From Candidatus Amesbacteria bacterium RIFCSPLOWO2_01_FULL_48_25 (GTDB lineage Bacteria; Patescibacteriota; Microgenomatia; CAZETR01; Amesbacteraceae): 64,000 nucleotides of DNA. The position numbers and the translations under genes are program-made. The number at the start of each line of letters is the position of its first letter. The first letter of the stretch is position 1. The stretch is from the NCBI GenBank assembly GCA_001773695.1, contig MEXN01000001.1, forward strand, positions 41,903 through 105,902, in the 5' to 3' direction. The notes beneath the pieces were generated by a model. The model ran no database searches and had not been told where the DNA came from. It saw only the letters and a program-made list of their open reading frames with translations. Positions 13,174 through 22,965 of the stretch are shown here, in pieces.

Positions 13174-13288
13174 CCCGGCCACGACCTATTTTCACGGAGA
13201 GTTGCCCCTCAGCTATTGTCAGCGCTGGCGCGTTTTACGGTCCAGTTCGGAATGGGATGGAGTAGTTCCACGCCGCTCCAGTGACCGG
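13174..13288 (-). rRNA. rrf: 5S rRNA
   Basis: The minus-strand reading CCGGTCACTGGAGCGGCGTGGAACTACTCCATCCCATTCCGAACTGGACCGTAAAACGCGCCAGCG...GTCGTGGCCGGG has helix I end-pairing and the CCGAAC loop-C signature. Confidence 0.8.
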
Positions 13289-13678
13289 AAAATTCGTGCT
13301 TTCTTAAGTTTTCAACCAGGCGTTTATTCCCTGGAAAGTGAAGAGAATGTTTGTAATAGATCACGCAAATCTACTTCAATAAGACCGATTAGTACAGGTT
13401 CGCTAAACGCGTTACCGCGCTTACACGGCCTGCCTCTATTACGGGGTATTCTTCCCCGGGTCTTCTGTCCACCTTGCGGTGAACATGAGCTCCTTATCTT
13501 GGGTAGGGCTTCCCACTTAGATGCTTTCAGCGGTTATCCCGTAGGCACTTAGCTACCCGGCGATGCCGCAAGACGCGACAACCGGCACACCAGAGGTACC
13601 TCCACCCTGGTCCTCTCGTACTGAGGGCAGACCCCCTCAAGAGCTCCCCGACTCTACTGGATAGAGACCGACATTCAT

Positions 13679-14479
13679 CCCGCATATCACTATACGGATT
13701 CGACCATATCTTCACTTCATAGCTCATTCTGAGCATAGTAGTGTCTGACGTATGGCCTGTGAGGATTCTAGTCACCAAAGCTTCGGAGTATTTTTTCCCT
13801 TGAAAACTTTCGCTTACCCGTATTCATGGAATAGGCGATCTCCAAAACTTTAGCCATCCCCTTTCTATGTAAATGCTGTCTTGATTTTACTAGCTCAACG
13901 ACTCGACAAAATTTATCAAAGTCTTCAGCCTTTTTAGTCAGCAATTTATTTCGAAAAAATGGGATTACTTTATCGACAATGCTTGGCAAATCTCTTACAA
14001 CATAAGCCAAACTTTTATCGGTTTTATCAGTTAGACTATTCTGTTTAATATAGCCGCAGTCTAATTTTCGTTTAAGTTTTTCCAAAACTATCCTCCCAGA
14101 AGGGTTCTGTGAAACTTTGAAAAAATAAACCACTTGCCAATGGGTAATTGTTTCCTGGCTTCTAACTATTCCTACATAGAAACAACCTTCGCCTTCAACA
14201 AAACCCACCAAATAATCATCACTGATCATTCGACTAGTCTTTCCTGCTGATAATCTTGCCTTCGTTCTCACACAAAGTGGTTTTACATTTTTACTAGTAT
14301 ACAAATACTACACTAGTAGCAAAACATTTACAAGGTTTTCCAGCATATAGTCAAATTTTATCCACACTTGGGTTGGTGGAATCATCTAATAACAGTTTCT
14401 CGCATAATTTAAATTAACATTCAAAAACGGTGGATGATAGACAGCTCGAAATTGTCACCTATTAGAATTACTTTAGGTC
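13679..14479 (-). mobile_element. Group I intron in 23S rRNA domain V (insertion after ...GAGACAGT, before TCGGTC...)
   Basis: Exon continuity GTGAGACAGT | TCGGTCTCTATCC is broken by about 800 nt that contain a LAGLIDADG ORF. The 5' exon ends in U and the intron ends in G, as expected for group I introns. Confidence 0.75.
13768..14304 (-). CDS. LAGLIDADG homing endonuclease (intron-encoded)
   Basis: LVGFVEGEGCFYVGIV is a LAGLIDADG motif variant. The ORF lies entirely inside the 23S rRNA intron. Confidence 0.8.
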   Translation of the reverse strand: MYTSKNVKPLCVRTKARLSAGKTSRMISDDYLVGFVEGEGCFYVGIVRSQETITHWQVVYFFKVSQNPSGRIVLEKLKRKLDCGYIKQNSLTDKTDKSLAYVVRDLPSIVDKVIPFFRNKLLTKKAEDFDKFCRVVELVKSRQHLHRKGMAKVLEIAYSMNTGKRKFSREKILRSFGD

Positions 14480-21261: not shown

Positions 21262-21291
21262 AAAAAACCCGCCAAATAGGCGGGCTTTTTT
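21262..21291. terminator. Bidirectional intrinsic terminator AAAAAACCCGCCAAATAGGCGGGCTTTTTT
   Basis: Perfect 6-bp GC stem flanked by an A6 run and a T7 run, located about 180 nt past the 16S 3' end. Confidence 0.75.
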
Positions 21292-21470
21292 GCTTGTACT
21301 CTAAAAAGTGGTAGGAAATATAAGTAGCGGGAAACTGCTTTTGACGTGTGCTGCTTCCCCTACCTGCGGGTCCCGTTATTTTAATGTGGACGGTTTCCAA
21401 TGACCACAGGGTGATTTCCACTACGGCTCTGAAAAAATTAATTTTCTAAGCCTACCGTGATTAACTCCTA

Positions 21471-22965
21471 GAAAGGAGGTGATCCATCCCCAGCTTCGGC
21501 TAGGGATACCTTGTTACAACTTAGCCCTCATCGCCGATCTTACCCTCTTCCCGCCATAGGCGGGACGTCAGGCACTACCGACTTTGCTGGCTTGATGGGC
21601 GGTGTGTACAAAGAGCGAGAACGTATTCACCGCGGCCTGCTGATCCGCGATTACTACCAAGTCCGGCTTCATGGGGGCGAGTTACAGCCCCCAATCTGAA
21701 CTGAGGGGTGTTTTGCTGGGATTAGCTCCGCCTTGCGGCTTGGCAACCCATTGTTCCACCCCATTGTAGGATGTGTGTGGCCCCAGGCATAAGGGTCGTG
21801 CTGACTTGACATCATCCCCTCCTTCCTCCCCACCAACGGCGGGGCAGTCTCCTGTGAAAATTTAACACAGAATAGGGGTTGCGCTCGTTTCCACACTTAA
21901 GTGGACACCCCACGGCACGAGCTGACGACAGCCATGCAACACCTGTCCCGCCATCCATTTTCATAGATCATCCCATGTTTCCATAGGACTAAACGGCGGG
22001 ATGTCAAGCCTGGGTAAGGTCCTTCGCTTCGTGTCGAATTGAACCACATGCTCCCCTGGTTGTGCGCTCTCCCGTCAATTCCTTTGAGTTTTAGTCTTGC
22101 GACCGTACTCCCCAGGCGGCCCGCTTCATGCGTTAGCTCCGACCCCCAACCCCGACAAAGTCGGGGATATTCAAGGATCAAGCGGGCATAGTTTACAGCT
22201 AGGACTACAGGGGTCTCTAATCCCTTTCGCTCCCCTAGCTTTCGTTCCTCAGCGTCAGTGCTGCCCCAGGTACCTGCCTTCGCCCTTGGTGTTCCTGTCG
22301 ATATCAACGCATTTCACTGCTACACCGACAGTTCCAGTACCCCCTAGCAGACTCATACCTCGTCCATCTTTCACCCGTTCCCAAGGTTGGGCCTTGGTCT
22401 TTCAAGCGAAATGCGACGAAGCGCCTACGAACTCTTTACGCCCAGTAAATCCGGATAACGCTTGCACCCTACGTATTACCGCAACTGCTGGCACGTAGTT
22501 TGTGGGTGCTTATTCTCCCCGCCATGTGGCGGGGCAAAAGGAGTTTACAACCCGAAGGCCTTCATCCTCCACGCGGCGTCGCTGCGTCAGGCTTTCGCCC
22601 ATTGCGCAATATTCCCGGTTGCTGCCATCCGTAGATGTATAGCCCGTATCTAAGTGCTATTGTGACCGGCCGACCTCTCAGTCCGGCTACCCGTCATCGC
22701 CTTGGTAGGCTCTTACCCCACCAACTAGCTGATAGGACATAGGCTCCTCCATCGGCGGCCAGTTACGGCCTTTTATCCGGAGATGTTATGCGGTATTAGC
22801 CAGTCTTTCGACTAGTTATTCCCCACCAAAGGGTAGATTCCTATGTATTACTCACCCGTCTGCGACTGTCCGATAGCCCCTTGCGGAATCACCGGACCGT
22901 TCCACTTGCATGCCTAAGGCACGCCGCCAGCGTTCATCCTGAGCCAGGATCAAACTCTCAAAAAA
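21471..22965 (-). rRNA. rrs: 16S rRNA
   Basis: 3' end: reverse complement of GGATCACCTCCTTTC at 21471-21485. 5' end: reverse complement of AGAGTTTGATCCTGGCTCAG at 22939-22958. Internal blocks include GTGCCAGCAGCCGCGGTAAT and the CTCGTGCCGT / ACACCGCCCGTCA-type segments. Confidence 0.92.

Follow-up and report, generated by a model that had tools for sequence, protein, structure and literature searches.

Unlinked rRNA genes are common in the candidate phyla radiation (CPR, Patescibacteriota), where their occurrence is clade-specific (Brewer et al., bioRxiv 10.1101/705046). Among circularised CPR genomes, 27 of 34 show such a separation, and tRNAs, protein genes and homing endonucleases have been noted between the rRNA genes (Lui et al. 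2021, PMC8172020). Here we describe an rRNA locus of this kind from Candidatus Amesbacteria bacterium RIFCSPLOWO2_01_FULL_48_25, a member of the CPR, in a 64,000-nt stretch of contig MEXN01000001.1 (the window; all coordinates refer to it). As in other unlinked CPR loci, tRNAs and protein genes lie between the rRNA genes and the arrangement is a conserved, clade-specific trait. The surveys of Brewer and Lui classify loci by distance and strand only, whereas predicted separate promoters, a duplicated boxA, separate processing stems and conserved cargo can be resolved here for one lineage.

The 23S gene of this locus contains a group I intron, and here too there is precedent. A survey of insertions in CPR rRNA genes listed 23S position 2604 as one of the sites where single-domain LAGLIDADG_1 genes abound, and one such enzyme, I-ShaI, was shown to be active and dimeric (PMC11270868). 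Our intron resembles the "23IS13" introns of that survey in its position (2604), in its single-domain endonuclease family and in the mixture of ORF-containing and ORF-less copies (ORF, open reading frame). In contrast to the characterised enzyme, activity is predicted here, and the closest solved relatives are halves of I-OnuI-family monomers rather than I-CreI. Published work already covers both the unlinking of rRNA genes in CPR and group I introns with LAGLIDADG genes at 23S 2604, and in these respects the locus is an ordinary further case.

Judged by layout, the nearest experimentally studied analogue is Borrelia burgdorferi, in which reverse transcription PCR revealed three separate transcripts from the rRNA region and the tRNA-Ile gene runs in the opposite direction (PMC3037291; PMC4370689). 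The two loci share a single 16S gene set apart from 23S-5S and an oppositely directed tRNA-Ile. In Borrelia, however, tRNA-Ala goes with the 16S gene and 23S-5S is tandemly duplicated, whereas in the present locus tRNA-Ala stands at the head of the 23S unit, the cargo includes an ATP-binding cassette (ABC) exporter and the 23S gene carries an intron. The three units proposed below are predicted from sequence.

A second comparison is with E. coli. The E. coli rrn leader is reported to combine boxA antitermination with a terminator-like site, 'tL', in work by Kingston and Chamberlin (1981) and by the Squires laboratory. The likeness is that boxA occurs before 16S and again before 23S and that a terminator-like structure lies in an rRNA leader; the boxA found here, GCUCUUUGAAAA, matches that of E. 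coli, GCUCUUUAACAA, at 10 of 12 positions. Two differences stand out. The hairpin here comes before boxA and is thereby out of reach of boxA-dependent antitermination, and the leader is a distinct conserved structure without an Rfam family.

Organisation of the rRNA locus

RNA genes were called across the window with Rfam covariance models and ARAGORN, and related Amesbacteria contigs, labelled L001, L003, L006 and so on, were used for comparison. The 16S gene (21472–22965, minus strand) is free of insertions and scores 1339 bits against SSU_rRNA_bacteria over model positions 1–1533. From its 3' end at 21472 to the 5' end of 23S at 17220 there are 4251 bp, which hold six ORFs and one opposite-strand tRNA. 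This spacer exceeds the distances by which rRNA genes have been called unlinked (>1500 bp in Brewer, or 2000 bp with intervening genes in Lui). Beyond it, on the minus strand, follow tRNA-Ala(UGC) with its G3:U70 pair (17356–17431; Rfam and ARAGORN), 23S (13381–17220 including the intron; Rfam and BLAST) and 5S (13173–13289; Rfam, 71.1 bits). All genes of the locus except tRNA-Ile lie on one strand.

An earlier reading of this DNA, made from the letters without database searches (the sequence-only reading), had described a stand-alone minus-strand 16S closed by a strong bidirectional terminator, a tRNA-Ile(GAU) that folds only on the plus strand, and tRNA-Ala(UGC), 23S and 5S only after the gap. 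The Infernal/Rfam check that it proposed was run and put the small-subunit, large-subunit and 5S rRNAs and the tRNAs at essentially the positions it had given. Its description of an unlinked rRNA arrangement with mobile intron content agrees with the distance above, with the duplicated signals described below with a genuine group I intron in 23S, and with intron sets that differ between related genomes.

The same gene order recurs in relatives: 16S, variable DNA, a small ORF (small ORF 2 below), tRNA-Ile, HlyD-(ATPase)-MacB, leader, tRNA-Ala, 23S, 5S and a hydrolase gene. It is kept in L001–L007, L086, L092/L095 and L111, and likewise in L113/L116, which lack the transporter; L115 shows the conserved layout too. 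The nearest relatives of the permease (65–82% identity) also sit on Candidatus Amesbacteria contigs.

The 16S gene is flanked by a set of signals of its own. Upstream lies a predicted promoter-like site, TTGTAA-17-TAGAAT (23157–23185, minus strand), found by consensus scan, with a −10 box that aligns with TATAAT/TACAAT in L001 and L003. It is followed by boxA, GCTCTTTGAAAA (23124–23135, minus strand), and by the 5' strand of a processing stem (23075–23099, minus strand), both kept in L001 and L003. The complementary 3' strand (21293–21315, minus strand), recognised from the sequence and from alignment with L001, is directly followed by a hairpin of the form A6-GCCCGCC-TATTT-GGCGGG-T6 (21262–21291). 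With runs of A and T on its two sides, this resembles an intrinsic terminator in both directions, as the sequence-only reading had it, and the same element stands 3' of 16S in L001. With its own promoter-like site, boxA, stem and terminator, 16S is therefore equipped, as far as these predicted signals go, with everything needed by a stand-alone unit. We also noted a small toxin-antitoxin-like pair (23201–23720, minus strand), flanked by the SpoU methylase gene on one side and the 16S promoter on the other and made up of a ribbon-helix-helix protein of 93 aa and a weak ParE/YoeB-like protein of 82 aa; it is not present at the same place in L001 or L003.

The exact boxA 12-mer occurs twice in the whole window, each time upstream of an rRNA gene. 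The second, identical copy lies between tRNA-Ala and 23S (17250–17261, minus strand), and matches are found at equivalent places in L001, L003, L005, L007 and L086. Both copies are predicted rrn antitermination sites. The 23S gene also has its own processing stem, formed by 17228–17251 and 13336–13360 (minus strand; RNAduplex −66.6 kcal/mol, z = −4.5 versus shuffled sequences). A scan for terminators in this region detected no terminator-like site after 5S (13145–13172). The hydrolase gene starts 27–40 nt after the 5S region and is followed by a CTP synthase gene; the two may be co-transcribed with the rRNA unit.

Between these blocks, tRNA-Ile(GAU) (20420–20492, plus strand; ARAGORN, and Rfam at 59.5 bits) has its own TATAAT (20404–20409) 10 nt upstream, and a similar −10 box is seen in most relatives. 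Apart from the window, ten distinct lineages have this gene in inverted orientation with respect to tRNA-Ala, and one (L096/L107/L115) has it in direct orientation. On L001 (~7180–7260, minus strand), upstream of the complete gene, there is a partial copy of the 5' half of tRNA-Ile, GGGCCGCTGGTTCAGCGGTAGA..., with its own TATAAT, which may be a scar of rearrangement. In L115, a member of the one lineage with direct orientation, the 16S gene contains an insertion of ~830 nt (8377–9207) with a faint LAGLIDADG_3 ORF.

Taken together, these features make it probable, in our view, that the Candidatus Amesbacteria bacterium has this one rRNA locus and that an ancestral 16S-tRNA-Ile-tRNA-Ala-23S-5S operon has come apart here into three RNA units, the gaps between them holding protein-coding cargo. 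The first would comprise promoter, boxA, 5' stem strand, 16S, 3' stem strand and intrinsic terminator. The second would be a one-gene tRNA-Ile(GAU) unit on the opposite strand, served by its own −10 box. In the third, an invariant promoter would be followed by a leader of ~130 nt ending in a terminator-like hairpin, then by tRNA-Ala, boxA, stem-enclosed 23S and 5S. The cargo would include a YknXYZ/MacAB-type exporter operon between tRNA-Ile and the third unit, from which the ATPase gene has been deleted exactly in this lineage, together with variable lineage-specific DNA that has built up at two places, behind the 16S terminator and behind the permease gene. Separate transcription of 16S and 23S is predicted from the terminator, the second promoter, the second boxA and the separate stems.

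A structured leader before tRNA-Ala

The best promoter match in the region, TTGACA-17-TAATAT (17581–17609, minus strand), was found by consensus scan and stands before the tRNA-Ala-23S-5S genes. Its −35 box and its spacing are identical in 15 of 15 distinct Amesbacteria leaders collected. Downstream lies a structured leader RNA of ~130 nt (17449–17580, minus strand), recognised from folds, from covariation and from its occurrence: a model search recovered exactly one copy per genome, always in the same position. No Rfam family, SRP and 6S included, matched it at E ≤ 1.

The leader begins with a 5' hairpin, P0, in which an invariant UACCUUU pairs with a GAGG-containing strand. Next comes a long helix, P1, with an invariant CAUG at its base, and then a GC hairpin (17457–17472) and a run of seven U (17449–17455). 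The middle helix covaries among relatives, appearing as CUUUGC:GCAAAG, CCGU:ACGG, CGACUA:UAGUCG, GCUACC:GGUAGC and CUUGCACAA:UUGUGCG. The covariation of P1 rests on folds of the individual sequences; MAFFT misregistered P1, and the covariance model captured the terminator helix only. That helix is 89% paired with compensatory changes in four of its five pairs, a covariation score reached by none of 500 shuffles, and in the 15 leaders its free energy is −9.8 to −13.8 kcal/mol with a run of 5–7 U. The whole terminator-like hairpin (17449–17472) lies ~110 nt downstream of the conserved promoter, and the distance from the U run to tRNA-Ala varies from 12 to 75 nt. The shortest gap, 12 nt in L006, is by its length too short for a conventional promoter.

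The sequence-only reading had listed a second terminator at 17443–17471 as one of the elements of the gap. A hairpin with a T run is indeed there, but it is not simply the end of the block of protein genes. L113/L116, with no transporter genes upstream and with tRNA-Ile at a distance of just 127 nt, have the leader module as well, and the hairpin therefore belongs to the leader of tRNA-Ala-23S-5S. By the same observation we discarded the idea that ending the transporter operon is its only role. Also rejected was GAACUUUGC, considered as a boxA that would allow passage through the hairpin: this segment forms one side of a covarying helix, unrelated sequence takes its place in L086, L094 and L108, and the true boxA copy lies downstream of tRNA-Ala.

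Translation of 14 leaders (13 plus L111; L113 lies outside that set) gave, in each, an open frame of 11–17 codons beginning at the invariant AUG, with 10–13 nt between GAGG and AUG. A leader peptide is nevertheless a minor possibility to which we give little weight. The predicted peptides are unconserved beyond the codons that overlap the helix, GAGG and AUG are both inside helices, and the GAGG-AUG spacing is long.

The anatomy of the leader suggests a candidate attenuator with an anti-antiterminator, an antiterminator and a terminator. When leaders were folded only as far as the terminator loop, the 5' strand of the terminator paired with the GAGG strand in ~10 of 13. Cognate GAGG/terminator pairs were more stable than non-cognate ones (−9.9 versus −8.4 kcal/mol; permutation p = 0.0012, uncorrected for relatedness), and the pairing in the window itself is weak (−7.7 kcal/mol). 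As an attenuator, the leader would switch according to whether the GAGG strand joins the 5' hairpin or pairs with the terminator's own 5' strand; free 30S subunits, ribosomes or an rRNA-binding protein could tip this balance. The UACCUUU:GAGG hairpin may mimic the pairing of anti-Shine-Dalgarno and Shine-Dalgarno sequences.

Intron, gap genes and transporter

Within 23S, the 5' exon corresponds to E. coli positions 1–2604 (MG1655 rrlH numbering; 14481–17220, minus strand; Rfam and BLAST) and the 3' exon occupies 13381–13671 (minus strand). A cmscan of the whole window had returned an apparently intron-less 23S at 14406–17220 (model positions 1–2925), an outcome that would have spoken against the interruption proposed by the sequence-only reading. 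We rejected this match as an alignment artefact. An Rfam re-scan of 13150–14900 covers model positions 2215–2912 across an insertion of 811 nt and ends at 13381, and BLAST against rrlH places positions 2637–2759 downstream of the insertion. Two other candidate numbering references, the ~2.8-kb "E. coli plasmids" NZ_AP027616.1 and NZ_AP027888.1, were set aside, as they are not E. coli 23S and one is without E. coli landmarks. Both consist only of 23S rRNA, at least NZ_AP027616.1 is not E. coli-like, and they are probably contaminant contigs.

Read from the sequence, the intron is 809 nt long (13672–14480, minus strand) and sits in domain V after U2604, the 5' exon ending ...GAGACAGU. P1 forms between GCUGUC, the internal guide, and GACAGU at the end of the exon, with a U.G pair at the splice site; in P10, UCGA adjacent to the guide pairs with UCGG of the 3' exon. 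The terminal base of the intron is G (13672). L003 carries a homologous copy of 809 nt at the same site, with a core that aligns along its length and an endonuclease 66% identical; the copy in L006, also at the same site, is ORF-less and 342 nt long and scores 73.7 bits in Rfam. The guide sequence is kept in both. Because the window copy is homologous to an ORF-less copy that scores above the Rfam threshold, we take it, on this comparison, to be a genuine group I intron. The insertion point is two bases after A2602 in the peptidyl-transferase centre, so the intron must presumably splice out for the ribosome to work; self-splicing with exon ligation is predicted from this position. Sets of 23S introns differ among relatives (near 1917–1951, 2500, 2504, 2593 and 2604; L111 has none at 2604), and such a patchy distribution is the pattern expected of mobile elements.

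The ORF, a peripheral insertion into the intron, encodes a single-motif LAGLIDADG protein (13768–14304, minus strand; motif LVGFVEGEG), as had been proposed together with the intron. Pfam LAGLIDADG_1 matches it at 1.3e-19, with 71.4 bits against a cut-off of 23.1 and one domain only; the start codon is ambiguous between TTG 14304, GTG 14271 and ATG 14229. The protein matches either half of I-OnuI-family monomers (4lq0, 6e-42) and also 170-aa single-domain chains of homodimer type. The insertion point is the centre of a pseudo-palindrome, GAGACAGT|TCGGTCTC, and this target therefore suits a homodimer. A homodimer-type endonuclease would spread the intron by cutting the intron-less site GAGACAGT|TCGGTCTC, and the candidate intron-less target of the predicted enzyme is GTCGTGAGACAGTTCGGTCTCTATCC.

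A further group I intron, of ~202 nt, interrupts the anticodon loop of a tRNA(CAU) gene elsewhere in the window (51465–51737, plus strand). Rfam Intron_gpI matches at 51428–51686 with 62 bits; ARAGORN finds the gene only when introns are allowed and the threshold is relaxed, and default scans miss it. Similar small introns occur in tRNA genes of cyanobacteria and Azoarcus. A 225-aa helix-turn-helix transposase-like ORF (53427–54168, plus strand) overlaps the start of another gene, tRNA-Met(CAU), at 54095 by 10 nt.

The exporter genes in the gap encode a HlyD/YknX-type membrane-fusion (periplasmic adaptor) protein (19142–20137, minus strand) and a MacB-type ABC permease (17941–19140, minus strand, in a frame open to 19179). 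The adaptor matches Pfam HlyD_D23 (2.3e-19) and NCBIfam RND_mfp (122 bits; cut-off 94.9) and has a precomputed match to Beta-barrel_YknX. The permease has MacB_PCD and FtsX domains (Pfam 1.7e-39 and 2.5e-20). By junction alignment, the permease probably starts at ATG 19140, with a single base separating it from the HlyD stop TAG at 19144–19142. No ABC ATPase is encoded in the operon or in the entire 64-kb window. Relatives encode adaptor, ATPase and permease in the order YknX-YknY-YknZ, with a MacB/LolD/DevA-type ATPase gene present in at least eight related lineages. Comparison with them indicates that the gene is missing exactly between HlyD and MacB here and that its absence is real, in line with the sequence-only reading of a HlyD/MacB-like pair with no adjacent ABC ATPase.

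This pair resembles the YknXYZ/MacAB/DevBCA type VII exporters in its adaptor, in a permease with the MacB periplasmic core and FtsX domains, and in the gene order kept by relatives; it differs in lacking the ATPase gene, and an outer-membrane partner is neither expected nor seen. Permease domains and adaptor of a MacB-type exporter are present and the cognate ATPase is not, which leaves the system incomplete as encoded. L006 also lacks the ATPase gene, at a different junction, and L092, the nearest relative (permease 82% identical), keeps it. Since the junctions differ and L092 has the gene, the losses in the window and in L006 are independent, and a loss shared by descent with L006 is ruled out. 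Another HlyD-like ORF, short (220 aa; Pfam HlyD_D23 5e-7) and with no permease or ATPase beside it, lies at 50698–51360 (minus strand), directly adjoining the intron-containing tRNA(CAU).

The sequence-only reading had also listed three small ORFs and a 100-aa ORF in the gap. All are open frames, but only small ORF 2 (20752–20985, minus strand; 77 aa from ATG) is supported as a gene. By tblastn it is found at the same position in at least nine loci with 55–74% identity; its 73 homologue clusters, every one named hypothetical, come from Amesbacteria-like sources only, and we regard it as a conserved, Amesbacteria-specific hypothetical small protein. Small ORF 1 (20993–21235, minus strand; 80 aa), small ORF 3 (20505–20741, minus strand; 78 aa) and a plus-strand frame of 82 aa have no counterpart among the related loci. 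An extended −10 element, TGATATAAT (21242–21250), lies after the 16S terminator, 6 nt 5' of the ATG of small ORF 1, and small ORF 3 and tRNA-Ile converge, with 12 nt between the stop of the one and the 3' end of the other. Searches of the small ORFs against Pfam and NCBIfam gave no match. The 100-aa ORF (17606–17908, minus strand) is an orphan of this species: its homologues are only identical copies from Candidatus Amesbacteria bacterium RIFCSPHIGHO2_01_FULL_48_32, and it is absent from the relatives compared.

That ORF belongs to one of two sites whose length varies from 14 nt to >8 kb between relatives (compared in L001, L005, L006, L007, L109 and L111). One follows the 16S terminator (20492–21262 in the window) and the other lies between the permease gene and the leader promoter (17609–17941). 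Both hold unrelated, lineage-specific genes and therefore behave as insertion hot spots.

Alternative explanations and significance

Misassembly is frequent in rRNA regions, and the interior of 23S forms the contig end in several related contigs, so a metagenomic chimera deserves mention as a source of this arrangement. However, three independent European Nucleotide Archive (ENA) assemblies hold the identical locus, and the gene order is repeated in more than ten divergent genomes of different studies, including contigs of 405 kb and 155 kb. With the layout present in at least ten other Amesbacteria lineages and in three independent assemblies, it is therefore not an assembly artefact; we rate a chimera as exceedingly improbable, and on these comparisons it is excluded for practical purposes. 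A single operon is also very unlikely. In that case the whole 9.8-kb stretch would be transcribed together, a polymerase modified at the boxA of the 16S leader would pass both hairpins as well as the transporter genes, and promoters inside the stretch would merely add to the output. The shared strand of all genes but tRNA-Ile fits such an operon, as does a boxA in the 16S leader that could load an antitermination complex, and no terminator was found after 5S either. Against it stand the canonical A-run/T-run terminator after 16S, conserved in L001, the convergent tRNA-Ile, and the fact that 23S is preceded by a further boxA and a further, invariant consensus promoter as well as by a processing stem of its own. 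Moreover, the gap in relatives can hold 8 kb or more of unrelated genes, some of them on the opposite strand. Several observations do weigh against the split into three units and the roles given to its parts. Promoters and terminators are consensus or comparative predictions, and terminator-like sites in the region number 14, little in excess of a shuffled expectation of 9.2 ± 2.7. The best promoter is separated from tRNA-Ala and 23S by a terminator-like hairpin with boxA downstream, which leaves the passage of polymerase to 23S unexplained. The window intron scores 32.4 bits against RF00028, below the threshold of 50, its core being split by the ORF, and the permease and adaptor are without an ATPase partner in 64 kb. 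We nonetheless favour the three-unit arrangement.

Two narrower questions concern the leader and the transporter. The second boxA lies after the leader hairpin, and therefore boxA-dependent antitermination cannot explain read-through of it. From its conserved position and structure, the leader is either an attenuator-like element or a small RNA gene, and not merely the end of the protein block. A new attenuator that gates large-subunit rRNA synthesis separately from the unlinked 16S is a tentative proposal, and one that we would not put above its serious rival. This is that 17609–17449 constitutes an independent small-RNA gene beside tRNA-Ala, the 23S block being served by leak-through or by a weak promoter overlapping the T run; we judge it, too, possible rather than likely. 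The complete promoter-to-terminator architecture, the covariation-supported structure in a single copy per genome and the TAAAAT/TAACAT-like hexamers directly 3' of the T run in several relatives all suit a small RNA. Yet the module always lies 12–75 nt upstream of tRNA-Ala, even in L113, where all the upstream DNA is different. In L006 the T run and the tRNA are 12 nt apart and a conserved −35 box is absent, and the strongest promoter at a locus normally serves rRNA, the leader promoter being the only consensus one here. As for the HlyD/MacB pair, it either draws on an ATPase from elsewhere or has begun to decay only recently. That the pair is a dying remnant, non-functional since the loss of its ATPase, rather than a transporter using an ATPase encoded elsewhere, seems to us rather unlikely. 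The 64 kb without any ABC ATPase favours a remnant, the ATPase retained in the closest relative (MacB 82% identical) means that the loss may be recent, and the independent loss in L006 with its different junction suggests a dispensable gene. On the other side, both ORFs are intact, full length and tightly juxtaposed (stop, 1 nt, ATG), with a dN/dS of 0.08–0.17, a ratio for which dS is saturated.

The value of the locus is descriptive, as a well-resolved case of features already reported for CPR bacteria. In this CPR lineage the split appears to be more than a matter of distance, as the signals are duplicated as well (two boxA copies, two processing stems and separate predicted promoters), and the gaps act as hot spots of cargo gain and loss, where an ABC ATPase gene has been lost exactly on two independent occasions. 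One feature is unexplained and possibly new: the conserved promoter-leader-terminator module before tRNA-Ala-23S-5S. Should this leader control read-through, it would reveal how the ribosomal subunits are kept in balance in a cell whose 16S and 23S genes lie apart; it would then be a cis-regulatory RNA that balances both subunits in genomes with split rRNA operons.

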